From: Patescibacteria group bacterium
GTDB taxonomy: Bacteria > Patescibacteriota > Patescibacteriia > Magasanikbacterales > GWA2-37-8
Assembly: GCA_041649475.1 (NCBI GenBank)
Contig: JBAZNA010000001.1
Coordinates: 878,594-942,593 of the forward strand
Length of the DNA stretch: 64,000 nucleotides
Reading direction: 5' to 3'
Made by a program: the position numbers and the translations under genes. Under the pieces are notes generated by a model, which was not told the origin of the DNA, did no database searches, and saw nothing but the letters and a program-made list of their open reading frames with translations. This document shows positions 1 to 57,224 of this stretch, piece by piece. Numbering within the stretch: position 1 is the stretch's first letter; every line of letters starts with the position of its first letter.

Positions 1-199
1 ACACCCATGGCGGACAAATTCGCCTGCCTTTTGTTGGTCCGCTGGGAAGCGCACCGACTGACTTGCCTAAAAATTTTTATAAAGGTTTGAATTATTATCA
101 TTCAATTCCGGTATTTACTTCTGTCGGAGCTGGAGAATCAGGCGGACCGATCAGATTTTTAGATCCGCCGGAGATTTCAGTGATTGAACTGGTCCCCTG

Positions 200-238
200 A
201 AAAAAAAAGGTGCCCGACGCGAACGTTCGCGCCGGGCC
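200..238 (-). terminator. Intrinsic terminator of the GC-rich unit (minus strand): GGGCCCGGCGCGAACGUUCGCGUCGGGCACC followed by a U9 run
   Basis: Reverse complement of 209-238 gives a perfect 11-13 bp GC stem around an ACGU loop, immediately followed by T9 (A9 on the plus strand at 200-208). Confidence 0.6.
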
Positions 239-752
239 CGGACTTCTGCGAGTGGGCGGACTTGTCGCGTGCGATGGTGGTCGCGAGCGAACACGTCACT
301 CCCTGCTTCTCTCGTCTCTCCCGGTACCCCCGGGATCTTGTAACCCCCTCGCGCCGAAGCGCGAGGGGATGACGTGCCGATCAGCTTGTGGCCGTCGGCT
401 GACCCAGCTCCTCGCAGATGGAGATGGGCTATGTTGTGTCTGAACGGGTTCCGCCGTCCGCGGGTTGATGCTGCGTTCGCTGTCAGATCAGTTCCGTCGG
501 CGTAGTTGCCGGCGACGAACTTCTGACAGTGCAACTTGGGGGCCTGGCCGGCGCCGCTTGCTGTGCTGGCGCTAGCCGCCGAGGTCCCCGGCGCCGAGGT
601 GCGCGGCGACGTCGTCGTTGCCGCCCGCGCTGTCGTCGCCGATGTTGCCGATGCCCGATGTCATGGTCGTGAAGCCGTGGCTCACCCGTACTCCTCTCGT
701 CGCATGGCGTCCCTCCTGGTCGTCGTCGCATAGAAACGCAGACAACTTCGTT
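200..752 (-). other. GC-rich (~62% GC) promoter-to-terminator unit; candidate structured RNA and/or small-peptide gene (AGGAGG-N6-ATG 7-codon ORF, then a 30-codon Gly/Asp-rich ORF)
   Basis: Consensus promoter at 759-787 (minus) and terminator at 200-238 (minus) bracket about 550 nt with no convincing long ORF. The minus-strand RNA contains a C(UUCG)G-capped 9 bp stem (344-371), the long helix ctgtcaga...tctgacag (480-530) and CAUCGG direct repeats. Confidence 0.45.
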
Positions 753-758
753 GGGCAC

Positions 759-787
759 ATAATAGCACAAAATGATGAGTTTGTCAA
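759..787 (-). promoter_or_regulatory. Sigma70-like promoter TTGACA-17-TATTAT driving the GC-rich unit leftward
   Basis: Reverse complement of 782-787 is TTGACA; reverse complement of 759-764 is TATTAT; spacer is exactly 17 bp. A near-identical 30-mer occurs at 57221-57253. Confidence 0.6.
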
Positions 788-855
788 TAGTTTGGGCCTA
801 TAAAATACAAAAAAATCGCTTATTTTAGCGATTTTTTTATCAGATACTAATAATT

Positions 856-2148
856 TTATGGTTTCAACCTGCCAATAGTCCTCGGAAACGGGATACATTC
901 ACGAATATGTTCCACGCCCGTTATCCAGCGCACCGTGCGCTCCAAACCAATACCAAACCCCGAATGCGGCACACTGCCATATTTTCGCAAATCAGTATAC
1001 CACTGGTAGTCCGCTTCACTTAAGCCCTCGTCTTTGATGCGTTCATACAACAATTCATGATCATCCTCACGCTGGCTGCCGCCGATTAATTCTCCGGCTC
1101 CCTCAATTGCGATCAAATCGTCATTTAAAACCAGTTCCTGATTACTCGGATCGCGCTTCATGTAAAACGGTTTAATGCTTTTCGGCCATTTTTCTATAAA
1201 GACCGGCACCTCCGAATCTTTTGTCAGTAACACCTCATCATCATTGCCTAAATCCTCGCCGTATTTAATATCCGAACCAAGCTCATTTAATTTTTTAATT
1301 GCTTCATCATAAGTCAAACGCGTAAACGGCTGATCGGCCTTCTGTAGCGGTTCAACGTTTCTTTCCAAAATTTCCAATTCTTCTTTACAATTATTTAAAC
1401 AATAACGCACTATGTATCTAACCAATCCTTCCTGAATTTTTAGATTTTCTTCATGCTCCACAAAAGCCGCTTCCGCGTCCATCATCCAAAATTCGGTTAA
1501 ATGCCGTTTAGTTTTGCTCTTCTCGGCTCTAAAAACCGGTCCAAAATCATAACATCGTCCCACCGAAGCAATTGCCGCCTCAATATATAGCTGACCGGAT
1601 TGAGATAAGTAGGCAGTGCCCAAATCAAAATACGGAACCGGAAACAAGGTGGTCGTGCCTTCGCAGGCATTGGGCGTAAAAATTGGCGAGTCAACTTTTA
1701 TAAAATTTTCCTTATGCAGATACTCGTTGATGGCCGTAATAATCGCATCGCGCACGCGCAAAATCGCCCACTGCCTTTTGCTCCTAAGCCACAGATGGCG
1801 AAGATCCATCAAAAAATCAGGACCGTGCTCTTTTTTGCTAATCGGATAATCTTGCGCGTGCTGAATAATTTCCAAATTTTTTATCTGCAATTCATAAACA
1901 TTTTCTTTTTTGGGATGCTTGGTCACTGTGCCGGTAATTATCACCGATGATTCCTGCGACACATCCTCCACCCGAGTCCATGTCTCCTCGCTTAACTGGG
2001 CTTTGACAGCCACGGCCTGTATCCAGCCCGTACCATCCCGCAGTTCCAAGAACCCAATCGGCCCGGATGACCGCTTGTTATACAGCCAGCCCTTTATTGT
2101 AACCTCCTGCCCTACGTATTCGGATATATTCTTGATGAATGTGGACAT
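856..2148 (-). CDS. asnS: Asparaginyl-tRNA synthetase
   Basis: 430 aa; class II motifs [21 protein letters not shown] and [21 protein letters not shown] (PHSG is typical of AsnRS rather than AspRS). Confidence 0.85.
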
Positions 2149-22420: not shown

Positions 22421-22870
22421 CTACTTGCCCTCCCCGAACCGACGCTGGGGCTCGGTCATCTTCCTGGCCTTGCGCCTGGCACATTTGCGGATGCCCGACA
22501 TCAAGTCGCCATAGGCGGCGGCGAACCTCTTGCTGCTGCGCAGGCCGTCTATGATCTTGGCCAGGATCTCGGTTTCCAGTGAGTACTCCTCCCGGTCTAG
22601 GAAAGCGGCCGAATAGGTCTCCACCAACACATCGTGAAAGTCGTCACTGGCATCAGAACCGACCAAGAAGGAACGCAATAGGCTGGTGAACCAGTTGTCG
22701 TAGAACTTCACGAGCAGGATCGGATTACCGCCCAGCCGGTTGTCCACCAGATACTGCCTGGTCTGCCGGAGGGTCATAATCCCCTCCAGGTACATCAGAT
22801 TGATCTCTGACCCTTCCTTGGTGAAAAGGAGGTTGAGAGGTTGGACTCCTTCTCCTGTCTCCTTGGCCAT
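22421..22870 (-). CDS. Hypothetical 149 aa protein encoded by a GC-rich cassette
   Basis: ~58% GC; own promoter (22899-22927), then GGAGG-N6-ATG; no recognisable domain. Confidence 0.5.
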   Translation of the reverse strand: MAKETGEGVQPLNLLFTKEGSEINLMYLEGIMTLRQTRQYLVDNRLGGNPILLVKFYDNWFTSLLRSFLVGSDASDDFHDVLVETYSAAFLDREEYSLETEILAKIIDGLRSSKRFAAAYGDLMSGIRKCARRKARKMTEPQRRFGEGK

Positions 22871-28012: not shown

Positions 28013-28094
28013 ATATTTTTATTAAAAATTAATTAAAATTTGATTATACCTATTCTATCTCATCCACATATGCACAGTCAACATCAAAATTTTA

Positions 28095-28123
28095 TTGACA
28101 CGCAACTCGCTATTGCCTACAAT
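28095..28123 (+). promoter_or_regulatory. Cassette promoter TTGACA-17-TACAAT
   Basis: 28095-28100 is TTGACA; 28118-28123 is TACAAT; spacer exactly 17 bp; ~55 nt upstream of the GC-rich prs-like ATG. Confidence 0.6.
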
Positions 28124-28180
28124 GCAGACAAAGTTCGCACCTTTAACAACGCATTTCGCGAAAGCGGAAAGGATATACGG

Positions 28181-29392
28181 ATGTCAGACAACCTTGAGAA
28201 GGTTCTGGGTTCCACTATTCCCTCCTTCATCAGCCGACTGATGCAAGATGCGGCTACATACGTCGCAGAAAAAGTTGGTACTACGACGGTACAGATGCCA
28301 ACGTTTTTCGTGGAGCTGGCCGACACTCTCAAACGGCTGGCCGAACAAGCCAGACATAACCGCAACGGCGGGCTGACCCTGGTGCCCATGCCGGGATTCG
28401 TGGAACTGGCCAGCACCACCAAGAAGCTCATCGAAGAGCACGAGAAAGACACGCCGGTGGACATCGTCGTGCCCGAATTCAACACCCGCAGCAACAAGGA
28501 GCCGGTCGTGCGCCTGAGCAAGGACCACATCGGCGGCCACGACTGCGTCATCCTCACCAGCGGACCTGGCACCTACGAGATGCTCACCCAACTCCAGTTG
28601 GCTCTGGGTTATCTGGTCGGCCGCCGGGCCGCCAGAATCTCAATCGTAACCGGCTATCTGCCCCTAGGCAGATCAGACAAGGACGAGGGGGCGCTTGAAT
28701 TCGCTCTTGCTTCCCACATCGTTCACATGATCGTCTCCGCCTCCTACGGCCATCTGGATCGTATCATCGCTCCGGACCTGCACGCACCCCAGGTGGTCAT
28801 GGCAGCGCAGGTCGGTCTCATCACCGAGGTAACGCTCGCCCGTCGCGTGCTCACAAGGGCGGTCTCGGATGCGCTTGAGAAGTTCAAACGCATCTGCCTG
28901 GTTCTCCCTGACGATGGCGCCTACAAGAAGTTCATGCGCGTCATTGCCGAAGTCGAGAAGAATCTCAACATCAAGCTGCCGGTGGTCTGCGGCCAAAAAC
29001 GCCGCAACAGCGACACCCATTCTGAACTCCTCGGCTTGGCCGGTGACACGAGCGCCTTGAAGGACGCGCTGGCTATTGGCTTTGACGACGAGATCGCCAC
29101 CGGCATCACCACTGTGCACACCGCCGAGGCAGTGCTCCGGCAGTATGACGCAGCCGACTACTGGGCGGCGGCGATCCACGGCGTGCTCTGTGGCGATGCT
29201 CCCAAGATCCTCTCTTCTGAACTCTGCCCGATCACGCGGGTATTTATTACCGACTCCATCCCGCCCAACGGCCGTATTGAGCTGGATCCGCTGCGCGCCA
29301 GCGACCGCCTGAAGGTGGTTTCCTGGGACGAAGATCTGGCTCACCTCATCTACTATCACCACTGGGACAAGTCCATCCGCGAAATGCGCTAG
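28181..29392 (+). CDS. Ribose-phosphate pyrophosphokinase (Prs/PRPP synthetase) homologue with a ~150 aa N-terminal extension, GC-rich cassette
   Basis: IVTGYLPLGRSDKDE aligns with the Prs PYFGYARQDR region; APDLHAPQV with DLHA; FDDEIATGIT with the PRPP-binding DD.DTG; ~58% GC against ~38% flanks. Confidence 0.65.
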   Translation: MSDNLEKVLGSTIPSFISRLMQDAATYVAEKVGTTTVQMPTFFVELADTLKRLAEQARHNRNGGLTLVPMPGFVELASTTKKLIEEHEKDTPVDIVVPEFNTRSNKEPVVRLSKDHIGGHDCVILTSGPGTYEMLTQLQLALGYLVGRRAARISIVTGYLPLGRSDKDEGALEFALASHIVHMIVSASYGHLDRIIAPDLHAPQVVMAAQVGLITEVTLARRVLTRAVSDALEKFKRICLVLPDDGAYKKFMRVIAEVEKNLNIKLPVVCGQKRRNSDTHSELLGLAGDTSALKDALAIGFDDEIATGITTVHTAEAVLRQYDAADYWAAAIHGVLCGDAPKILSSELCPITRVFITDSIPPNGRIELDPLRASDRLKVVSWDEDLAHLIYYHHWDKSIREMR

Positions 29393-29439
29393 CCCTCCGT
29401 AGAAGCCGGCCCAACGGCCATGCTTCTCCCACCCCTCCA

Positions 29440-29470
29440 CAACCCGCACCCGCGGGTTGTCTTCATTTTG
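29440..29470 (+). terminator. Intrinsic terminator CAACCCGC-ACCC-GCGGGUUG plus a U-rich tail
   Basis: 8 bp perfect stem immediately after the prs-like stop. Confidence 0.55.
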
Positions 29471-29520
29471 AGCGCTTGTTAAGCACTTGCCGTTTTGCCG
29501 AAAAAAAGCTATCATATTCC

Positions 29521-29620
29521 CATATATACTCACTCATTTCGCTTATATAAACATATAAGCTCATTCGCTCAAAAATGAAATTATAAATAATTTCATTTTG
29601 TTCACTCATTTCGCTTATGA
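29521..29620 (+). repeat. Copy (a) of the A'-B-hairpin-A leader module; motif A ends in the ATG of the downstream ORF
   Basis: actcactcatttcgcttat (29528-29546), catataagctcattcgctc, 12 bp perfect inverted repeat 29572-29583 / 29588-29599, then ttcactcatttcgcttATG. Confidence 0.6.
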
Positions 29621-30078
29621 AAAGAGGAAAACCAACCCCAGAGGAAATGGCTGAAATAGCTTTTGACCGGACCGCACCCAGCCGTGCAAAGACAGGAGAC
29701 ATAACTTTGCCCAGATCAATTGCTGAACTGAGGTCAAAAATGTCTGTTCCCAAATCCGTATCCGGATCCGAATCCGAAGAAGTCCCTACCATATCCGCAA
29801 TAGCGGCTTGGGATGACTTCAGATTAGAACTGGAAAAAACCGGAAAACTGGAATCAGCAATTAAAACAATGCAAGATTACATAAACGAGATTAGAAATGA
29901 AATTGATAAAAGAAATCTGCTAATGCATTCAGACGCAATGAAACAACCCGGGAGTATGGAATACAACGGGGTAATAAGAAAAATACAAAAATTAACCAAC
30001 CCATCTATCGCCAAAAAATTTTTAAAAATTTATAAAAGAATAATAGAACAAAGAATTCATGAGTTAGAGAGCAGATAA
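29617..30078 (+). CDS. Hypothetical protein (first gene of the trpS operon)
   Basis: 153 aa; its start codon is embedded in motif A; trpS follows 14 nt later. Confidence 0.45.
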   Translation: MKRGKPTPEEMAEIAFDRTAPSRAKTGDITLPRSIAELRSKMSVPKSVSGSESEEVPTISAIAAWDDFRLELEKTGKLESAIKTMQDYINEIRNEIDKRNLLMHSDAMKQPGSMEYNGVIRKIQKLTNPSIAKKFLKIYKRIIEQRIHELESR

Positions 30079-30092
30079 TTATTATAAAAAAT

Positions 30093-31064
30093 ATGAAACG
30101 CATTTTTTCCGGAGTTCAACCGACAAACAACATTCATATCGGCAATTATCTGGGGGCGATAAAAAATTGGGTTGAACTGCAAGACAAATATGAATGTTTT
30201 TTTTGTATTGTTGATCTGCACGCTATTACCGTGGCGCAAAAACCGGAAATTTTGAAAAAAAATATTTTGGATGTCGCCAAAACCTATCTGGCGCTTGGCA
30301 TTGACCCGAAAAAATCCACGATTTTTGTCCAATCCGCCGTTAAGGAGCACACTGAACTGGCCTGGATTTTAAACACCATCACCAAAACCGCCGAACTGGA
30401 GAGGATGACCCAATTCAAAGACAAATCAAAACAACATAAAGAAAACATAAACATGGGCCTGTTTGATTATCCGGTCTTAATGGCCGCGGATATTTTGCTT
30501 TACGACACCGATTTAGTGCCGGTCGGAGACGACCAAGCACAACATGTAGAGCTGACCAGAACCTTGGGCAACAGATTTAATCATCTTTATGGTGAGACCT
30601 TCAAAATTCCGGAAGCCCTGATAAAAAAAGAAGGCGCCAGAATCATGGGCCTTGATGACCCATCCAAAAAAATGAGTAAAAGCGCAATCAGCCCGGCCAA
30701 CTATATTGCTTTGCTTGACTTACCGGAGGTGGCAACCAAAAAAATTATGCGGGCAGTCACCGATTCCGGTTCGGAAATAAAATCAGGCGCGGACAAGCCG
30801 GCGCTCTCCAATCTTCTTTCTGTTTATTCCATGTTTTCCGGCAAACCAATAAAAGAAATAGAAAAAAAATATATTGGCAAGGGTTACGCTGATTTTAAAA
30901 CAGGCCTGGCCGAAGTGGTGGCAAAATTTTTAAAAGATTTTCAGAATAAATTTAACAAAATCAAGGACAGCGAAGTTGAAAGTATTTTAAACAGCGGCGC
31001 CAAGGCGGCGGAAAAAATCGCGATTAAAAAAATAAATACAATTAAAGATAAAATCGGCCTATAA
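30093..31064 (+). CDS. trpS: Tryptophanyl-tRNA synthetase
   Basis: 323 aa; class I HIGN (TNNIHIGNYLGA) and KMSKS motifs. Confidence 0.9.
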   Translation: MKRIFSGVQPTNNIHIGNYLGAIKNWVELQDKYECFFCIVDLHAITVAQKPEILKKNILDVAKTYLALGIDPKKSTIFVQSAVKEHTELAWILNTITKTAELERMTQFKDKSKQHKENINMGLFDYPVLMAADILLYDTDLVPVGDDQAQHVELTRTLGNRFNHLYGETFKIPEALIKKEGARIMGLDDPSKKMSKSAISPANYIALLDLPEVATKKIMRAVTDSGSEIKSGADKPALSNLLSVYSMFSGKPIKEIEKKYIGKGYADFKTGLAEVVAKFLKDFQNKFNKIKDSEVESILNSGAKAAEKIAIKKINTIKDKIGL

Positions 31065-32527: not shown

Positions 32528-33757
32528 TTATTTCTTCAAAACATCTTTGAGCTTAACCATTTCAGCGTCTTTTTGGTTGCGCATTTTAATCTCCACTGAT
32601 TGCTGTGCTAAAGTTTTTTTAGAGACAACCAATCGGGTTGGAATACCAATCAAATCCGCGTCAGCCAATTTCACTCCGGCCGTGGCTTCGCGATCATCAT
32701 AAAGCACTTCCACGCCGTTTTTTATCAGATCTTTATATAATTTTTCAGCCGCTTCTAAAATTTCTTTATCCTGACCCAATGAAACCAAATGGTACTGAAA
32801 CGGCGCGACCGATTCCGGCCAGATAATTCCATCTTTATCATTAAAAACTTCCACCAAAGTGCCCATTATCCTTGACGGACCCATTCCGTAACAGCCCATC
32901 TCCACCGGCTTCTCTTTGCCTTTGTCATCCGTGTACTTAAAACTAAAGGCGCCGGAATATTTTGTGCCCAACTTAAAAATATTTCCCACTTCAATGCCTT
33001 TTTTCTCCAACAAATCAGAATTGCCGCATTCCGGACAGGCATTTTGGTCATTTATAATTTCTTTATTTACCGCCACTTTGCATTTCTCACAAAAATAAAT
33101 AGTGTCCTCGCCGATTTCAGATAAGGTTTGAAATTCATGAGAATATTTGGAAAACATTCCGCCGGAAGCGTAGGTCTTAATGGTGATATTACCTATTCCC
33201 AATCTTTCATAGACCTTAAAATATGCCTCTATCACTTTTTTGTAATATTCATCCAAGTCCTCGGTTGAGGTATGGAAAGAATACATGTCTTTCATGTTGA
33301 ATTCGCGGCCGCGGAGCAGTCCGGATTTGGCGCGCGGTTCATTTCTGAATTTATTTTGAATCTGATAAACCGACACCGGCAGATCGCGGTAGGAAAAAGT
33401 ATATTTTTGCACCAGGGGCGTCACCACTTCTTCGTGGGTTGGGTTTAAAACCAATTTCGCGCCGCCCTCGCCTTCAGTACGGAAAAAAACATCTATGGTA
33501 TTTCGGCCGGTGGTGACATAACTTTCTTCAGAGGTTAAAACCGGCATCAAGACCTCATTTCCGCCCACCGCATTCATTTCCTCGCGGATGATATTTTGAA
33601 TTTTGTTAAGCACGCGAAGCCCTAGTGGCAAATAATTGTAAACTCCGGCCATTTGTTTGGAAATAAATCCACCTTGACTTAACAGTTTGGCGTTTATGCT
33701 ACCCTCATCAGCCGGCTGGCTCTTGCTGGTTTTCCCGAAAAGATTTGAATATTTCAT
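32528..33757 (-). CDS. proS: Prolyl-tRNA synthetase (short form lacking the editing insertion)
   Basis: 409 aa; class II motif 2 FRNEPRAKSGLLRGREFNMKDMYSF; C-terminal anticodon-binding domain. Confidence 0.8.
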   Translation of the reverse strand: MKYSNLFGKTSKSQPADEGSINAKLLSQGGFISKQMAGVYNYLPLGLRVLNKIQNIIREEMNAVGGNEVLMPVLTSEESYVTTGRNTIDVFFRTEGEGGAKLVLNPTHEEVVTPLVQKYTFSYRDLPVSVYQIQNKFRNEPRAKSGLLRGREFNMKDMYSFHTSTEDLDEYYKKVIEAYFKVYERLGIGNITIKTYASGGMFSKYSHEFQTLSEIGEDTIYFCEKCKVAVNKEIINDQNACPECGNSDLLEKKGIEVGNIFKLGTKYSGAFSFKYTDDKGKEKPVEMGCYGMGPSRIMGTLVEVFNDKDGIIWPESVAPFQYHLVSLGQDKEILEAAEKLYKDLIKNGVEVLYDDREATAGVKLADADLIGIPTRLVVSKKTLAQQSVEIKMRNQKDAEMVKLKDVLKK

Positions 33758-33830
33758 AAGCGAAATGAATGAGTGAAATGCGTTGTTTACAACGGCATTT
33801 CCGAATGAATGAGCTTATATGATAATATAG
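33750..33830 (-). repeat. Copy (b) of the B-hairpin-A leader module, immediately upstream of the proS ATG
   Basis: Reverse complement gives ...catataagctcattcattcgg / gaaatgccgttg..caacgcatttc / actcattcatttcgcttATG (the proS start). Confidence 0.55.
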
Positions 33831-33941
33831 GTAGGTGTATCGTAAAAGTATTAGAATTGTTTTAATTTTAGCATTGGTTGAGGTTCTTGGCAACTCGCCC
33901 GGTTGACAAAATGCTAAAAATATTGTATAATTATGAATTAT

Positions 33942-34013
33942 TCTGGGGTAGTTTAATGGTAAAACGCCACGCTGTTAACGTGGTTAGTGTAGGTTCGATT
34001 CCTACCCCCAGAG
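33942..34013 (+). tRNA. tRNA-Asn (anticodon GTT)
   Basis: Folded by hand: acceptor UCUGGGG/CCCCAGA, D-stem GUUU/AAAC, anticodon stem CCACG/CGUGG with loop CUGUUAA, T-arm GUAGG-UUCGAUU-CCUAC, discriminator G; followed by a GGCCC...GGGUC-U6 terminator. Confidence 0.85.
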
Positions 34014-34215
34014 CTATGAAAAAAGGCCCAAAGTTATTCGGGTCTTTTTTCATAATTTTGCGGGAGGAAGCGAACAAAGGGGTGGCGGGGAAAGTATTTC
34101 CCCGCATTGCTGGGGGTGACCGAAGCCGCCAACCACTGTTAGAGTAGAGGCGGCCGAGGGCAAGAGGGGCGGAAGCCCCTATTGAGGAGCGCGCGAGCGA
34201 AGCGAGCGGCGCGAC

Positions 34216-34404: not shown

Positions 34405-35640
34405 ATGATAACAAAATTAAGGGTCAGCAACTATTATTCCATTGGAGAAGAAATAAAGCTAGACTTCTTAAAAGGTGGTGCAAAAAAGGAGGTGGGATAT
34501 TTTCAGTATAAAAAAAGTGAAAAAATATCACTAATAAACGGGTTTTTTGGTGCGAATGCGAGTGGCAAGAGTAGTATCCTGGGATCTATGGTCAGCCTAA
34601 TTAAAATGATGTACACCATCTCTTCACCACAAAATATATCACTACAGAGCGTTGCCTCTGGTGAGGTTTTGTTGTGCCACCCTAATCTACACAAAAATTT
34701 TAAAGATAAACCTACAAAATTAGGAATTGATTTTTTGTTTGGTAATAATTACTACACTTACGATTTGGAAATTCAAGGTGGAAACAATATAACTGAAGAA
34801 AATTTGTACGTTACCACTCTTGATTTAGCCGCTGCACATCCAAAAAAAATATTCACGAGATCCGGGTCTATTATTAGCTTCGGGCCGGAATACAAAGACT
34901 ACGAAGCTTACTCAACTAATATAAATATTCAAAAATATCAAACTTTTATTTCCCATTTAATAAACATTGGGGCAAAGGCTATGGTTGATTTTGTGAATTA
35001 TAAGAATTCTTTTTTTCTAAAGGTGGATAGGATGGATTTACAGCTCCCTTCTTACGGTAAGATCATAATACGAGCTTTCCAACTCAATTCTCTTGCAGAG
35101 GACAAGAAAAAGGAATTCTTAAAAATTACACAAGACATAATGAGTTGTTTTGATGATTCCATCAATGGTTTAGAAGTTGATACTAAAAATAATACTGTTT
35201 CTATCAAAGTGGGACACAAAAATTTCTTGAATAGCATTGACATTACGGATGAATCGGCCGGCACCAGAGAACTGTTTTGTTATATATATGACATATTAGA
35301 TGCCTTTAAAAAAGGCGGGGTTATTATTTATGACGAAACGAGCAAATACTACCACCCAGATATAGAGCTTGAGTTATTCTCTATTTTCAAAAATGAAGAA
35401 TTTAACACAAAAAATGCACAACTATTCTTCGCTTCACATAATCACGGGACTTTTGACTTACTTGAACTAGACCAGGCCTACATTGTGGAAAAAACAGATT
35501 CCAGCTCTACCATCAACAGGTTATCAGAAGTTGAAGATCTTAAAAAGCGGGACAACCTAAAAAAGAAATATCGCCTCGGCATGCTTGGTGGAGTTCCAGA
35601 CACTACTGCCTTTGACTTTAGGTTGAAACAACTACTATGA
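34405..35640 (+). CDS. ABC-type (AAA_15/AAA_21-like) ATPase, candidate anti-phage system component
   Basis: Walker A GANASGKSS; Walker B IIIYDE; H-loop ASHNHG; ~33% GC island next to tRNA-Asn. Confidence 0.7.
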   Translation: MITKLRVSNYYSIGEEIKLDFLKGGAKKEVGYFQYKKSEKISLINGFFGANASGKSSILGSMVSLIKMMYTISSPQNISLQSVASGEVLLCHPNLHKNFKDKPTKLGIDFLFGNNYYTYDLEIQGGNNITEENLYVTTLDLAAAHPKKIFTRSGSIISFGPEYKDYEAYSTNINIQKYQTFISHLINIGAKAMVDFVNYKNSFFLKVDRMDLQLPSYGKIIIRAFQLNSLAEDKKKEFLKITQDIMSCFDDSINGLEVDTKNNTVSIKVGHKNFLNSIDITDESAGTRELFCYIYDILDAFKKGGVIIYDETSKYYHPDIELELFSIFKNEEFNTKNAQLFFASHNHGTFDLLELDQAYIVEKTDSSSTINRLSEVEDLKKRDNLKKKYRLGMLGGVPDTTAFDFRLKQLL

Positions 35641-37405: not shown

Positions 37406-37615
37406 ATGCCGATCTTTGGCAGTGACGAAGACAGATACACAACTTGGAAATGCCCTTCGTGCCACAACTACTTCGGCAGAAGCGGCAAGTGTTCCGTCTG
37501 CGGCGACACGCTAGTGCAGAGTGCCATCTCCGACGCGGCGGTCAACCGCATCATCTACGCTAGGGACATCGAACGGCCCCGGCAACAAGACCAGAAAAAG
37601 CGCGAAGGAGGATAA
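37406..37615 (+). CDS. Small zinc-ribbon protein (GC-rich cassette)
   Basis: 69 aa; CPSC...17...CSVC; its stop overlaps the RBS of the next ORF. Confidence 0.5.
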   Translation: MPIFGSDEDRYTTWKCPSCHNYFGRSGKCSVCGDTLVQSAISDAAVNRIIYARDIERPRQQDQKKREGG

Positions 37616-37621
37616 GGCGCC

Positions 37622-37909
37622 ATGGCAAAAAAAGTCATAAATGGCCAGGTCATAGACGACCTTGGGATAGATCTCGACAGCTTACCCCTCCCAGCGCAAC
37701 TGCTGGAGGAGCGGCGGCGCAAGGGTCATCCCATCGAGATCCCAAGCTTGGGCGTCATCATCATGCCCGATGGAACCGTGGTGGACAAGGGCCTGCCCCC
37801 GGACGACTACGCTAGGGCCAGCCCGTCCGAAAAGACCGCCACGCTCAAGCGGTACGAGCCAGAGCAGGGTTTCTTCGCCCGCCTGTGGCGGCGGATCTTT
37901 CACAAATGA
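37622..37909 (+). CDS. Hypothetical 95 aa protein (GC-rich cassette)
   Basis: GAAGGAGG RBS then ATG; ~60% GC; followed immediately by repeat R1. Confidence 0.5.
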   Translation: MAKKVINGQVIDDLGIDLDSLPLPAQLLEERRRKGHPIEIPSLGVIIMPDGTVVDKGLPPDDYARASPSEKTATLKRYEPEQGFFARLWRRIFHK

Positions 37910-38626: not shown

Positions 38627-39442
38627 ATGCGCATTATCTTGTTGAGTTTCGTGCTCGGGATCTGTGTATCAAGTGTGCCCCACCATGGGATCGCCCAAAG
38701 AGATTCGTCAAGACCATCCCTGGCCACACTGGACAAGCAGATCTTCACCCAGAACACGGTGATTGAGGCCGATCGGATCGAGATCCAGAGTGGAGCCAGG
38801 ATCCGCGTCCGCAACGGAGCGGCCTTGAAGCTCAAGGCAGACACCATCGTGATCTTTGGCCCCGCCTTCATCGACGGCCGCGGCGAACCCGGCCACCAAG
38901 GCGCTCCCGGGCAATCGAAGAACGACACCTGGCGGAGCAGCGGTGGCGGCGGGTGGTATAGCTGCGATATCGCCCATCGCGACTGGGTGGCTTCCGGAAG
39001 TGAGGTTGACCGCGGCGGGGATGGTGGACCGGGCGGTCCCGGAGGACCTGGGGCGATCATCATCCTGGAGTACAGGGACCTACAGGGTCCCGCCAACCTG
39101 CAAACCGAATTCCGAGGCGGACCGGGCGGTCCCGGAGGACCTGGTGGAACCGGCAGAATCCTCTGCTGCGGTTGCCACAACAACGAGTGCAAGCGGGGTC
39201 CTTCGGGTAGGTCAGGGCCAAACGGCCAGCCAGGTCCCAATGGACGGGAAGTTCGTCGAAGTCTGACGAGAACCCAATCCATTGATTCCACCAGCATCAC
39301 GCCGCCGCCGGAGCGCATGGAGTCGTGCTACCCCAACCCCTGTCCGTCCGGAATCTGCTGCGAGAACCAAGGCAGAATCTGGTGCTGTTCCGAAGGACAG
39401 TACTGCACCTATTCGCCTGATGGATGCAAGTACCGCAAGTAG
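38627..39442 (+). CDS. Secreted Gly/Pro-rich (GPGGPGGPG), Cys-rich protein (GC-rich cassette)
   Basis: AAGGAGG-N6-ATG; signal peptide MRIILLSFVLGICVSS; two GGPGGPGGPG tracts; 15 Cys in the last 120 aa (CCGCHNNEC, CCENQGRIWCC). Confidence 0.55.
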   Translation: MRIILLSFVLGICVSSVPHHGIAQRDSSRPSLATLDKQIFTQNTVIEADRIEIQSGARIRVRNGAALKLKADTIVIFGPAFIDGRGEPGHQGAPGQSKNDTWRSSGGGGWYSCDIAHRDWVASGSEVDRGGDGGPGGPGGPGAIIILEYRDLQGPANLQTEFRGGPGGPGGPGGTGRILCCGCHNNECKRGPSGRSGPNGQPGPNGREVRRSLTRTQSIDSTSITPPPERMESCYPNPCPSGICCENQGRIWCCSEGQYCTYSPDGCKYRK

Positions 39443-39560
39443 GCCGTCGCTCTTTTCTCCTCCGCCAGTCTGGCCCTTCCAGCTGGCTTCTTTTTTTATC
39501 AAAAATAATTGTATTCCAAATAAAGTCATGTTAAACTGACTGAAAGAGGAGGATGGGACA

Positions 39561-39938
39561 ATGAAAAAATACAAGCACTTCTCGGGTGCAGTGCTGATGA
39601 GAGACGAACTCAAAAAGAAGTTCGGCACGCCGAAGTGGCTCGCCGGCATCGTTGTGATGCACACCGTCCGGTATGGCTACCTCGTGGAAGTACGCGTCTT
39701 CGGCAAGGCCAAGTTCCCCAAGCTACCCAGGTTGCCTCTCTACCTCCGGGATGCCACCAGGGTCCGCTTCCGGCGGGTGAAGAAAACACCGGAAGCGCGA
39801 CTGAAGAGGGCAATCGCCCGGTTTGAAGATCCGGCTTCGCACGTCGCCGACAATGTTGCTCTCTCAGCAACCCTACACGAAGCCGCCGAAGCCCACTCCA
39901 AAATCCTGGGACCACATGGCCGCCTTCGACATTGCTAA
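39561..39938 (+). CDS. Hypothetical basic 125 aa protein (GC-rich cassette)
   Basis: AGAGGAGG RBS; ~58% GC; followed immediately by repeat R2. Confidence 0.5.
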   Translation: MKKYKHFSGAVLMRDELKKKFGTPKWLAGIVVMHTVRYGYLVEVRVFGKAKFPKLPRLPLYLRDATRVRFRRVKKTPEARLKRAIARFEDPASHVADNVALSATLHEAAEAHSKILGPHGRLRHC

Positions 39939-42242: not shown

Positions 42243-42298
42243 AAACTATCCCCGGCATAGTTGACTTAATTTTTCTGCAATGATAAATTATAAAGGTA

Positions 42299-42378
42299 TA
42301 TATAGATATAAACTCATTCGTTCGGAAAAGTTAAAGAAAGCTTTAACTTTTCTCTCACTCATTTCGATTATGAATAAA
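42299..42378 (+). repeat. Copy (c) of the B-hairpin-A leader module; motif A ends in the ATG of a 28-codon ORF
   Basis: agatataaactcattcgttcgg / aaaagttaaag-aaa-gctttaactttt / ctcactcatttcgattATG. Confidence 0.55.
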
Positions 42379-42456
42379 GCAAACAACAACCACTGGTATT
42401 TTATTAAGAATCTGTTCGTCTACGCGAAAAGCGGCGGTGGTTTGTTGTGTGTATAA
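42370..42456 (+). CDS. Possible 28 aa small ORF (MNKANNNHWYFIKNLFVYAKSGGGLLCV) launched from motif A
   Basis: Its start codon sits in the same position relative to motif A as those of proS and the trpS-operon leader gene; it ends ~20 nt before the cassette hairpin. Confidence 0.25.
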   Translation: MNKANNNHWYFIKNLFVYAKSGGGLLCV

Positions 42457-42478
42457 ATGTTCATGAAAACACAGAAAT

Positions 42479-42501
42479 CCCGCCTCGCAGGCGGGGTTTT
42501 T
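42479..42501 (+). terminator. Hairpin CCCGCCUCGCAGGCGGGG plus U5 (insulator in front of the Cys-rich cassette)
   Basis: 7 bp GC stem with a 4 nt loop and a T-run. Confidence 0.5.
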
Positions 42502-42539
42502 AGTTAATATCGCTCTTTCCACATACATGGAGGCCAACC

Positions 42540-43085
42540 ATGAAGTCAGCGGCGGCGGGAATCAAAGTGCGCATGGATGACGGGCACCCGGAATGGGTGG
42601 ATCCCGAAGTCAGCCACACTCAAGAGTTTACGCTCATACCGCCTGCTCTTGAACAGGCGGAGACAAGCCCCAAAACCATCATCCTGTACTGTGAATACTG
42701 TGACAACCTGACTCGGCACCGTGAATTCGATCAGAAGGAGCCGAAGTACAAACCGGTTCGCTGCGGATTCAAGCTGGTGTGGGCACGGGCAACCTGTCTA
42801 AAGTGTGGTTCAATCTACCCGGAGATCTACACTCCGAAGATCGTCCATCTGTACTGCCCCAAGTGCGATCCCGCGGGCGAACGGAAGGTGAAGTATTTCA
42901 AGGTTGAGCCCGGTTATCCCCATCCCCCGCGCACGGAAAGCAATAACTACATCCTGCTTGAACCGAACGCGGTGTGTATGGAGTGCGGATCAGTTGATTA
43001 CAGTTTCACCCAGCTCAAACTGCCGGATGAAAACGTCGTCAGCTTGACCGACCAGATTGACGCCGCCACAGTGCGCAAAATCTGA
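42540..43085 (+). CDS. Cys-rich protein with four CxxC pairs (two predicted zinc ribbons), GC-rich cassette
   Basis: 181 aa; GGAGG-N7-ATG; CEYC, CLKC, CPKC and CMEC motifs. Confidence 0.55.
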   Translation: MKSAAAGIKVRMDDGHPEWVDPEVSHTQEFTLIPPALEQAETSPKTIILYCEYCDNLTRHREFDQKEPKYKPVRCGFKLVWARATCLKCGSIYPEIYTPKIVHLYCPKCDPAGERKVKYFKVEPGYPHPPRTESNNYILLEPNAVCMECGSVDYSFTQLKLPDENVVSLTDQIDAATVRKI

Positions 43086-43198: not shown

Positions 43199-43564
43199 AT
43201 GATATCAACAAAACTTGCTCAAGCGGTCATAAATCCAAACCAGCCCATACCGACGGACAACCCCGTAGTCACCGGCTTAAACATATTCGGCCTTTTTTCG
43301 GGCCTAGGCACGGCCGATCTGCGGTTGGTCATTGCCAACCTAATTAGATTGGCTTTGGGTTTTATTGGTATAATAATGATGATAATGATTATTTGGGGCG
43401 GATTCTTATGGTTAACCGCCGGCGGCAATGACGACCAAACCGCCAAAGCCAAGGGCACACTGGTCAACGCCATCATCGGCCTCGTCATTATTCTGACCGC
43501 CAACAGTATTGTCATGTATCTTATCAGCGCCTTAACCGTCTCAACCGGCGCGCCGCTTTTATAA
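43199..43564 (+). CDS. Small hydrophobic membrane protein, TrbC/VirB2-pilin-like architecture
   Basis: 121 aa; two long transmembrane helices separated by a GG..NDD loop. Confidence 0.4.
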   Translation: MISTKLAQAVINPNQPIPTDNPVVTGLNIFGLFSGLGTADLRLVIANLIRLALGFIGIIMMIMIIWGGFLWLTAGGNDDQTAKAKGTLVNAIIGLVIILTANSIVMYLISALTVSTGAPLL

Positions 43565-55664: not shown

Positions 55665-56415
55665 AATGGGACCCGAGGATACTCTGGACCTGGGGGTGGT
55701 CGTAAATCCCCGTTTCCCGTGGGGTTCTGCTTCCCCGTGGCTCACCACTACGCAGGTGACTCGACCCATCTGCCTTTCGGCCACCAGGGCGGGTGTAGAT
55801 CTTGGGAGGGCGGCACGGGCGCTTGCATGTCATCAGTCGGGCTGTTAAGCCCTATGTGTGGAACAGCAGCTTCACCTGACGCTCCTTTCTTTTCCTCTGC
55901 GGGTGTTCGACCCCCGGATAGAGGTCGAATACTCGATAAAGGTGGGAAACGAGAGAGTGAACCCCCGCGTTTCCCGTACTGCACTGCTTCCATGCTTTGG
56001 CGCGACCCTGCGAGGTTACGGCCCTTGAGTTGAGAGAATAGTACTTCCCCGAAGGCTTTCCTATCCCGTACAACCTGGGCCTGCATAGTACCCCGAAGTG
56101 ACTTTGCCCTGCTTGGGCGTTGGCTAGGGGTGTGGTCGCCACTTAATTCCACACCTTGCGTTTAACTGCGCACGACACCTCCATCCTTGGGTGGTGTCAC
56201 CCTTGCTTGGCGCGGGAGCTTTGTCGTAATGCTCCGCAGCGCGGGTTTACGGTTTACGTGCGCCTAATGGACGCACGCACGGCGGGATCTACTTCTGTGA
56301 CCCCGAGTTAGAGAAACGGGCCATAACGCATGTGGTCCACTCCTCCACCGAGCCGCCGGCACATAGTCCGAGGGCCTTTCACAGGCCGCTAAATATTAAC
56401 GGACTACGAAAGATA
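55665..56415 (-). ncRNA. Candidate large structured ncRNA (~750 nt, ~60% GC) with its own promoter and terminator
   Basis: No credible ORF in either orientation; multiple GNRA/UUCG-capped helices (GGCCGAAAGGC, GCCUUCGGGG, CACUUCGGGG, GGGAAACG...CGUUUCCC). Confidence 0.45.
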
Positions 56416-56422
56416 ATGGATT

Positions 56423-56451
56423 AGTATAGCAGAAATTGTTCGGTTTGTCAA
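56423..56451 (-). promoter_or_regulatory. Promoter TTGACA-17-TATACT for the GC-rich ncRNA candidate
   Basis: Reverse complement of 56446-56451 is TTGACA; reverse complement of 56423-56428 is TATACT; located in a short AT-rich spacer. Confidence 0.55.
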
Positions 56452-56702
56452 CCTCTCGACCACTTTGGTCAAGAGGCAATTACTTACCACTTCGCTTTAA
56501 TGTCCCCACATAAGTGAGAGTCCAAAGATCAAAATGGAAAGTAATTGGGAGCCGAAGTGTTTGAGCACTGCGGCTGTGCCTCCAGCAATGTTCGCTCGCG
56601 CGAACGATTCGCATGGCCAGCCGCGTGGCACACTAGGGGTGCGGCTGTTAGGGCTGGTGGTCTGCCTCATACCTGATGCGCACGGAACGATCTCCGTTGA
56701 CA

Positions 56703-56918
56703 TCACAGGTCCAGGAGCAAACCCCCTTGTAGACACCCTCTGTCTTCTTGACCTTGGAGAGGTCGCTGATCTGTCGGCCGTCCTTTGACGTTGGAAGCCG
56801 CCTCCGCGAGAACTGCGAGGATGACGATGGCGATGATGACCCAGAAGGTGAACTTGTAGATCCCCTTCTCGTTCAGGTACCAGTCCATGTCGGATATCTT
56901 GTTCCTGATCTTACCCAT
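56703..56918 (-). CDS. Small single-transmembrane protein (71 aa) in a GC-rich unit
   Basis: AAGGAGAGG-N3-ATG; MGKIRNKISDMDWYLNEKGIYKFTFWVIIAIVILAVLAEAAS... Confidence 0.4.
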   Translation of the reverse strand: MGKIRNKISDMDWYLNEKGIYKFTFWVIIAIVILAVLAEAASNVKGRPTDQRPLQGQEDRGCLQGGLLLDL

Positions 56919-57224
56919 GTTCCTCTCCTTATCCTCGAACCACCCACACAAACCAACGCGCATGCGCCAGTCCGGGGCGGCTTCTTTCTCTAAGTTGAAA
57001 TGAACACAGAATGTTTCCATCCTGGACCGAGTGAACGACCCTATAACGTAGATTATTCACTTCGTTCAAAATGACAACGCCCATATTAACACAAAATCCC
57101 TCGTTGAGAGAGATTCTTGTTTGTCGCCCTTGTCAGGGCTAAAATTAGAGTATATTTTACTTGCGCCTAGCTGCACCTCTCTCAAATGCCACTATGCGCC
57201 TATTTTTTGATACTTAAACAAGCA

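Follow-up and report, generated by a model that had tools for sequence, protein, structure and literature searches.

A modular hairpin repeat placed in sense at start codons in Magasanikbacteria-type Patescibacteria

Why should the same leader of about 80 nucleotides end exactly at the start codon of a prolyl-tRNA synthetase gene (proS), of the first gene ahead of trpS and of an open reading frame (ORF) of 28 codons? The question arises in a stretch of 64,000 nucleotides from a Patescibacteria group bacterium (assembly GCA_041649475.1, contig JBAZNA010000001.1, positions 878,594 to 942,593, forward strand), which we call the window and number from its first letter. A preliminary description took this leader for a cis-regulatory RNA or operator and invited comparison with T-box and attenuator control. 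Our analysis leads to a different answer. The three copies are members of a dispersed, modular and strand-specific repeat family that fills the leader as far as the start codon, shows no preference for particular genes and comes and goes among relatives. With a probability of about 0.55 we regard the element as a portable, transcribed and generic 5´ leader cassette, that is, an expression leader and not a sensor, in a lineage that lacks Shine-Dalgarno (SD) sequences.

One unit of the element is about 72 nucleotides long. It consists of an upstream AT-rich hairpin (P1), a pyrimidine-rich linker (L1, x-CTCATTCGYTC), a second hairpin (P2) and a second linker (L2, CTCACTCATTTCG-x') followed by TTAT; the next G completes the start codon. 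Both hairpins have a conserved base and a variable top. In P1 the base is TTATAT...ATATAA and the top is, for example, GGGCTAAAGCCC, GGGCTTCGCCAC or CGATTGTAAACAATCG, in the window a 4-nucleotide loop alone (TATAT-N4-ATATA). P2 is a stem of 10-13 bp with the base GRAAAT...ATTTY; of 81 distinct hairpins, 69 have this stem length and 69 a tetraloop.

The window contains three full copies, (a) at 29542-29619 (+), (b) at 33755-33829 (-) and (c) at 42297-42372 (+). The leaders are thus located where they had been described, and every full copy is flush with an ATG: at 29617 (ORF of 153 amino acids), at 33757 on the minus strand (ProRS, with the Pfam domains tRNA-synt_2b and HGTP_anticodon) and at 42370 (the 28-codon ORF). 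The A-box pattern CTCATTTCGMTTATG with up to two mismatches occurs four times in the window compared with 0.41 expected, and none of 100 shuffled sequences reached four; the fourth match, at 29527-29547, is an additional A-box. With a covariance model, likewise, the three full copies and a partial one are detected in the window, and nothing else. The two shared boxes of the preliminary description are real, but its consensus is not exact: copy (b) carries a 4-nucleotide insert in each box (CTCATTCATTCGG and CTCATTCATTTCG), and P1, whose 3´ arm corresponds to "CATATAA" in box B, had been overlooked.

To determine how far the family extends, one genome per species (185,579 genomes) was scanned with the pattern CTCATTC-N30-50-TCATTTCGNTTAT, which matched at least 120 loci. 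Of the 120 matched loci listed, 64 contain true copies; the remaining half or so come from unrelated taxa, lack the hairpin and the flanks and are about as numerous as expected by chance. A covariance model built from 66 copies and applied to the 64 loci (446 kb) detected 86 copies. The carriers among the matches listed are metagenome-assembled genomes (MAGs) of Magasanikbacteria or Patescibacteria, and several copies per genome are found, with at least eight loci in CAZUFD01 and at least five each in MFRA01 and JBAZUP01 among these matches. ProRS and TrpRS of the window are 68-75% identical to proteins of named Candidatus Magasanikbacteria MAGs. Within the collections sampled, the family does not extend beyond Magasanikbacteria-type Patescibacteria, members of the candidate phyla radiation (CPR). 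The IMG/VR phage collection yielded 14 pattern matches, none of which is a true copy (22 bits at most), and a phage origin or phage use was therefore rejected. Rfam at the gathering threshold reported the tRNA-Asn alone in the whole window, and permissive scans across the module did not rise above sub-threshold noise; that of 29450-29660 gave no T-box and a best score of 22 bits for an unrelated sRNA, compared with a cut-off of 63. A description of the element was not found in Rfam or in full-text searches of the literature, the motif strings included.

Two side observations concern the genomes of this survey. Many element-bearing contigs (L008, L013, L015, L021, L022, L028-L030, L036, L037, L049, L050, L052 and others) belong to Third Party Annotation (TPA) MAGs entitled "uncultured Gammaproteobacteria", "Candidatus Udaeobacter" or "Saccharibacteria". 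They carry the same AT-rich, CPR-type genes, and a TrpRS labelled "Udaeobacter" is 72% identical to that of the window; probably these labels are mistaken and the MAGs Magasanikbacteria-like. A second, unrelated repeat was seen at L122 3955-3985 and L123 3893-3905 and several times each in L015, L020, L045 and L055. This repeat, absent from the window, forms a GC-rich hairpin with GGAATGACA at its end; the proS leader of L122, for instance, carries GGATTCCCGCTTTCGCGGGAATGACA.

The preliminary description had noted that the hairpins differ from copy to copy and are nevertheless near-perfect inverted repeats, and had proposed that their arms covary. Both hold. P2 comprises 12 perfect base pairs in copy (a), 11 base pairs and one bulged C in copy (b) and 12 perfect base pairs in copy (c), with single-sequence folding z-scores for the three window hairpins of -5.9, -3.7 and -2.9. 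Across 66 aligned copies, compensatory changes occur in 11 of 11 P2 pairs, and 91% of the cells are paired, compared with 76% in shuffles (0 of 500 reach the observed value) and 40-52% for slid registers. P2 variants such as AAATATTTTAGCAAGCTAAATATTT and GTGATCAAGCAAGCTTGTCAC recur across loci and genomes and thus form subfamilies. In two copies (L037 5526-5630 and L105 89-194) P2 is expanded to about 60 nucleotides with extra internal structure, next to a normal L1 and L2. For P1, folding predicts a hairpin in 58 of 85 copies (mean z-score -2.0), with many different tops; in the three window copies it is weak and consists of AU pairs only.

Units can be joined head to tail, three of them upstream of ftsA in locus L091, with a period of 72 nucleotides, and two each in L008, L075, L089 and L108. 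In such arrays the TTATAT that follows L2 of one unit is the 5´ arm of P1 of the next. The spacings between units (68, 71, 72, 78 and 82 nucleotides) are mostly not multiples of three, which argues against a coding repeat; a leader peptide or coding repeat was rejected on this ground, the ORF running through the L091 array being incidental. The bases x, before L1, and x', after L2 (alignment columns 8 and 65), are complementary in 48 of 66 copies compared with 27 expected, a count that is not corrected for relatedness, and A-U, U-A, G-C and C-G are all present. In the window these positions are 29559/29614 in copy (a), 33814/33760 in copy (b) and 42312/42367 in copy (c), the last being an exception with A/A. 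The complementarity could reflect pairing within P1 in an ancestral tandem, end-to-end pairing or an alternative helix covering the AUG.

The position of the element is well defined: it lies in sense orientation, between a sigma70-type promoter and the ATG or in a co-directional spacer, and it is not tied to gene function. Sixty-one of 79 terminal units are flush with an ATG, which in 57 cases opens an ORF of 50 codons or more, and the N-termini of the downstream ORFs look native (enolase, MKIKTIIAREVLDSRGNPTVEA; L24, RRF, Adk and TrmD). In 57 of 80 cases the gene upstream has the same direction, and the gap is often 0-30 nucleotides, which places the stop codon of that gene within P1 or directly ahead of it, as with the TAA in the GGGCTAAAGCCC loop; about half of the copies are in such tight intercistronic spacers. 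Five to six antisense copies lie between genes of the opposite strand. A sigma70-like promoter is detectable at 37 of 79 copies (for example TTGACA-17-TATAAT in L059 and TTGAAA-18-TATAAT in L091). Its -10 box mostly ends 15-50 nucleotides upstream of CATATAA, which places the predicted transcription start at the foot of P1.

The two synthetase genes in the window had suggested an attenuator or T-box-like sensor specific for aminoacyl-tRNA synthetases (aaRS), and an enrichment of aaRS or translation genes downstream of the element was to be looked for. The 57 downstream proteins match 103 Pfam families and include the products of truB, dnaG, trmD, rplX, rpmE, eno, frr, adk, ftsA and uvrD as well as glycosyltransferases. 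The commonest are glycosyltransferases (four), followed by L24, DUF167 and TP_methylase with two each; just two of the 57 are aaRS, namely ProRS and one enzyme of the TyrRS/TrpRS class. The enrichment thus disappears at the level of the family. The likeness to the T-box (RF00230) consists in the 5´ leader position and in the two of three window copies that precede aaRS genes, proS and the trpS cluster. At about 75 nucleotides the element is too short for a T-box of 180-300 nucleotides, as had been recognised before. It has no specifier loop, no T-box sequence and no terminator/antiterminator pair (in the three window copies no terminator lies between module and ATG), and it is not restricted to amino acid genes. 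Since orthologous proS and trpS loci do without the module, as shown below, the gene survey and the empty sites together refute an aaRS-specific sensor, to which we give next to no credence. What stands of the proposed cis-regulatory RNA or operator is a conserved, strand-specific leader element downstream of sigma70-like promoters; control of specific genes is not supported.

Orthologous loci were fetched via ProRS and TrpRS homologues, and the clearest comparison is that of proS (32528-33757, -). Copy (b) in front of it is composed of P1 (TATAT / TATC / ATATA, 33816-33829), L1 (CTCATTCATTC, 33803-33813), P2 (GAAATGCCGTTG / TAAA / CAACGCATTTC, 33775-33801, with the bulged C in the 5´ arm) and L2 (ACTCATTCATTTCGCTT) with the proS ATG (33755-33774), all on the minus strand, downstream of the sigma70-like promoter TTGCCA-17-TAAAAT at 33865-33893 (-). 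The module is absent in six relatives (L122, L123, L124, L126, L145 and L146; 71-85% protein identity). Three of these, L122, L145 and L146, retain the promoter of the window (TTGCCA-17-TAGAAT/TAAAAT) and about the first 15 nucleotides of the 5´ untranslated region (UTR) and then go straight to the ATG; L145 and L146 are the closest proS relatives and have the same tRNA-Asn neighbour. The L145 leader ends in cccaacatTATAT directly before the ATG, and the leader of the window reads cacctaccTATAT followed by TATC-ATATAAG-L1-P2-L2-CTT and the ATG, the 5´ arm of P1 aligning with the native pre-ATG sequence of L145. Since promoter and early 5´ UTR are kept in relatives that lack the module, the module is an insertion between promoter and ATG.

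The interval 29521-29620 had been described as one copy. A full unit is indeed located there, preceded in tandem by a degenerate unit without P2 (CATATATA-CTCACTCATTTCG-CTTATAT, 29521-29548, +). The full unit, copy (a), comprises P1 (CTTATAT / AAAC / ATATAAG, 29542-29559), L1 (CTCATTCGCTC, 29560-29570, the core of the former box B), P2 (AAAATGAAATTA / TAAA / TAATTTCATTTT, 29572-29599) and L2 (GTTCACTCATTTCGCTT) with the ATG (29600-29619), all on the plus strand; the ATG opens the ORF 29617-30078, ahead of trpS (30093-31064, Pfam domain tRNA-synt_1b). Upstream lies a sigma70-like promoter (TTGCCG-17-TATCAT, 29487-29515, +) that is also present in module-less relatives. At this site L122 and L130 are empty, with the same promoter and then an AT-rich leader of 21-26 nucleotides. 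L128, the closest relative at this site, whose TrpRS is 90% identical, has the remnant alone at the ATG (ATATATA-CCTACTCATTTCGCTTT-ATG), and the window has the remnant plus one 72-nucleotide unit bounded by the direct repeat CTCATTTCGCTTAT. At a third site, a DUF5671 gene, the module is present in L122 and replaced by an AT-rich spacer of 29 nucleotides in the window, L128 and L124. In the three compared sites a TTAT, TAT or AT direct repeat is found at both borders, where A/T repeats blur the exact breakpoints; the right border of the gained or lost segment is always at the ATG, the left one in or at P1. Where both orthologues are filled (rplX, rsmI and DUF167), P1 and P2 differ. As read from these alignments, the element is gained and lost as whole units immediately 5´ of the ATG in close relatives. 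Candidates for the way in which it spreads are recombination at TTAT(AT) direct repeats and a trans-acting enzyme that recognises DNA hairpins.

Copy (c) consists of P1 (TATAT/ATAG/ATATA, 42297-42310), L1 (42313-42323), P2 (GAAAAGTTAAAG/AAAG/CTTTAACTTTTC, 42325-42352), L2 (42353-42369) and the ATG (42370-42372) on the plus strand. As in the other two copies, a sigma70-like promoter is located upstream (TTGACT-17-TAAATT, 42261-42289, +). The 28-codon ORF (MNKANNNHWYFIKNLFVYAKSGGGLLCV, 42370-42456, +) is followed by an intrinsic-terminator-like hairpin with a T run (42482-42497, +). Promoter, module, ORF and terminator (42261-42505, +) make up a self-contained transcription unit of about 240 nucleotides, in which the ORF might be a genuine gene, what is left of a disrupted one or the main part of a small RNA.

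The same comparisons bear on the idea that the element acts on the DNA level, with ATATAAx as -10 box and the palindromes as operators for a dimeric repressor. Box B does contain a TATAAT-like hexamer, and P1 is palindromic in the window copies. The last base of this hexamer is, however, mostly A and co-varies with x', and a -35 box at fixed spacing is absent because the length of P1 varies. Better promoters are located upstream and conserved in module-less relatives, and the element as promoter itself was rejected for this reason. In addition, operators are constant in sequence, unlike these freely varying hairpin tops, and about half of the copies lie within tight intercistronic spacers. We consider a promoter or operator role very improbable.

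The start sites of this lineage suggest another role. The native genes of the window (GC content below 50%) have AT-rich upstream regions in which an SD-like motif is found in 3 of 54 cases and a T at position -1 in 49 of 54, giving a UAUG context. The 3´ end of the module, UUAUG, agrees with this genome-wide context. AAA is the second codon of 33 of 61 genes with the module compared with 9 of 54 native ones (p = 3.7e-5), and for proS and the 153-amino-acid gene AAA at this position is exclusive to the module-bearing genomes. In E. coli, AAA at the second codon is favourable for initiation. An alternative anti-SD pairing was rejected: the 3´ end of the 16S rRNA is the canonical GGATCACCTCCTTTCT in two related genomes (L016 5646-5697 and L061), and L1, L2 and the L2 core are less complementary to the 16S rRNA of L016 (4074-5697) than most shuffles, 91-96% of which pair at least as well. 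The near invariance of L1 and L2 suggests a lineage-specific binding partner other than 16S rRNA, which could be a protein that binds RNA or the element's own copying machinery.

In the generic leader reading, the module would be transcribed within the mRNA leader; the position relative to promoters, the close fit between cistrons, the almost exclusive sense orientation, the UUAUG match and the AAA enrichment all point this way. The hairpins would provide a structured 5´ end or an intercistronic stop, and the G-poor L2 with its UAUG (AAA) context would offer a start region to ribosomes that work without SD pairing. The element is probably a generic start-region or mRNA-stabilising module and possibly a purely selfish one.

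Several points weigh against this reading. Where transcription starts, whether the leader is processed and how it affects expression are all predictions from sequence. The predicted accessibility of positions -20 to 0 is 0.54, barely above the 0.50 of control genes (p = 0.004), and that of the AUG itself is not above the controls; a linker that is merely unstructured would, moreover, need no near-invariant sequence. Part of this invariance, that of CTCATTC and TCATTTCGNTTAT, was imposed by the search pattern, and copies found by the model alone vary within the linker motifs (for example CTTATTCG, CTCGTTCG and CATTTCAATTAT). G-U pairs show no excess on the sense strand (22 sense, 19 antisense), and nothing thus shows that the hairpins are selected as RNA rather than DNA. 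Turnover between genomes at 80-90% protein identity shows that any given gene can do without the module, and the shared P2 subfamilies, changes in tandem copy number and the antisense copies form the pattern of a selfish repeat.

A bolder version would see in the element a translation-start cassette that is specific to the lineage and can be copied, made up of leader, AUG and often AAA. It would stand in for SD, be read by a dedicated factor via the CUCAUU(U)CG linkers and spread by targeting the 5´ side of start codons and regenerating the ATG. We regard this version as doubtful; were it true, a functional ribosome start site would be the "cargo" of a mobile element.

The conserved linkers could also mark a regulon, with L1 and L2 bound by one trans-acting RNA-binding protein or small RNA that switches the translation of all module genes. 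Near-invariant single-stranded motifs, repeated two to three times between hairpins with the last one 3 nucleotides from the AUG, are what such a leader might look like; an alternative pairing of ATATAAx with x'UUAUG could compete with P1, and the upstream stop codons within P1 would suit it as well. Yet the set of module-bearing genes is not conserved even among close relatives, and their functions are unrelated. A search of both strands of the window did not find a complementary RNA partner. A common regulator is for these reasons improbable.

More has to be said about a purely selfish small repeat of the MITE (miniature inverted-repeat transposable element), REP or PATE type without host function. 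Here, linkers and hairpin bases would be the sites of an enzyme acting on DNA hairpins; insertion would occur beside TTAT or TATAT, only harmless insertions would survive in streamlined genomes and, since the element ends in TTAT, the ATG would be regenerated on insertion. Presence/absence polymorphism at three orthologous sites, P2 subfamilies common to different loci and genomes, tandem arrays with unit-wise gain and loss between direct repeats and the 5-6 antisense copies all fit. So do the short inverted ends ATATAAx / x'TTATAT with the x-x' complementarity described above, a single-base bulge that is confined to the 5´ arm of P2 (26 versus 0) and the missing strand asymmetry of G-U pairs. 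The preliminary description had considered a MITE in case only three copies existed and had transposon-like ends; there are far more, but polymorphism, subfamilies, tandems and the few antisense copies are indeed the behaviour of a dispersed repeat. On the other side, no transposase or recombinase gene adjoins any copy, and the neighbours of copies away from an ATG are ordinary (HisRS, HsdM, a TraG-like protein, DUF1189). A tblastn search with IS608 and IS200 TnpA queries gave nothing below E = 0.1 in 1.1 Mb of fetched DNA, which is weak evidence. The inverted ends measure merely 6-7 bp, and TTAT is too common to account for 77% of terminal units at an ATG. The very strong sense-orientation bias also speaks against a purely selfish repeat; the excess of AAA at the second codon suggests that translation is under selection, and genomes of about 1 Mb seldom retain useless DNA. 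We consider a purely selfish element less likely than a generic leader.

The preliminary description had also linked copies (a) and (c) to GC-rich cassettes. The neighbour of copy (a) is a gene of 57% GC at 28040-29392 (+) with a weak match to a phosphoribosyl pyrophosphate (PRPP) synthetase-associated domain and a strong intrinsic terminator behind it (29439-29460). Because this gene is found upstream of the trpS cluster in L122, L128 and L130 with or without the module, it is native rather than a cassette tied to the module. Between copy (c) and the GC-rich ORF at 42540 lies the terminator. The link to such cassettes is therefore given up.

Small GC-rich islands (52-62% GC) are nevertheless a feature of the window in their own right, located at 151-898 (-), 22421-22870 (-), 37406-37909 (+), 38627-39938 (+), 42540-43085 (+) and 55748-57020 (-). 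Their ORFs have no confident Pfam match, and most have a strong AGGAGG-type SD sequence, unlike the rest of the genome; the phage collection contains no match for the 271-amino-acid ORF at 38627. The island genes resemble foreign or mobile ones with their own style of expression. An AAA_21/AbiEii-type ATPase (34405-35640) and a pilin-like protein of type IV secretion (43199-43564, T4SS_pilin, E = 1e-11) flank several islands and copy (c), and the stretch of about 34-44 kb may be an integrated mobile element. Close to proS, a tRNA-Asn(GTT) gene (33942-34014, +) has a perfect promoter (TTGACA-17-TATAAT, 33903-33931) divergent from that of proS, an arrangement retained in L145 and L146.

To our knowledge, almost nothing is known experimentally about transcription and translation in CPR/Patescibacteria. 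The element provides a handle on how start sites without SD function, on how polycistronic mRNAs are punctuated or stabilised and on how a small repeat can be inserted at start codons without loss of the gene. Its covariance model would aid the annotation of start codons in Magasanikbacteria MAGs, and the element itself would serve as a lineage marker and as a candidate portable expression leader for CPR tools. If it were merely selfish, it would be, as far as we know, the first dispersed repeat family of this kind described in CPR genomes, which would still be notable in genomes that are so extremely streamlined. A demonstrated function in translation or an insertion targeted to start codons would give it greater weight.

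Among known systems, several are similar in part. The element has MITE features in being small, non-coding and multi-copy (86 copies at 64 loci) and in the three comparisons of filled and empty sites; terminal inverted repeats of at least about 10 bp are lacking, since beyond ATATAAx / x'TTATAT the ends are direct repeats (CTCATTCG and CTCATTTCG). The Correia/NEMIS elements of Neisseria and ERIC/IRU of enterobacteria are small dispersed repeats that are co-transcribed with neighbouring genes, fold in mRNAs and can alter mRNA stability or supply expression signals. Like them, our element is short, non-coding, multi-copy, present or absent at orthologous sites, rich in hairpins and located near gene starts, its transcription and folding in mRNA being likely by analogy. 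Correia/NEMIS and ERIC/IRU have long terminal inverted repeats (about 26 bp in Correia) and a TA duplication, occur in either orientation and do not end at a start codon, whereas the element described here has inverted ends of 6-7 bp, two internal hairpins, direct-repeat linkers and an almost exclusive sense orientation at the ATG.

With BOX of Streptococcus pneumoniae and REP/BIME of proteobacteria it shares modular hairpin subunits, variable tandem numbers, intergenic location and subfamilies. BOX is built from three distinct subunits (A, B and C) of 45-60 nucleotides, and REPs are GC-rich palindromes of 20-40 nucleotides that carry a 5´ GTAG, are mostly located at gene 3´ ends or between convergent genes and are paired with RAYT transposases. 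An assignment to REP/BIME was rejected, since the hairpins here are AT-rich, lack GTAG and lie 5´ of genes in sense; we know of no BOX or REP/BIME repeat that is AT-rich, positioned at start codons or found in CPR bacteria. Integron attC sites were likewise rejected, as the consensus lacks RYYYAAC/GTTRRRY core sites and the units stand back to back without a cassette, 5´ of housekeeping genes (intI was not searched for). A CRISPR array was rejected because the variable part is palindromic and a given "spacer" may be repeated inside one array (units 1 and 3 of L091) as well as in others.

In its action the element may, by analogy, resemble 5´ stem-loop stabilisers such as the ompA leader or intercistronic protein caps such as that of chloroplast PPR10, which have an open start region directly downstream. 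These are sites of single genes that evolved in situ, whereas the element is a cassette that can be copied and recurs with one sequence in front of dozens of unrelated genes. In its population behaviour it resembles the co-transcribed small repeats Correia, ERIC, BOX and REP/BIME; what is distinctive is the abutment to start codons to the single nucleotide, the alternating build of hairpins and direct-repeat linkers and the occurrence in CPR bacteria.

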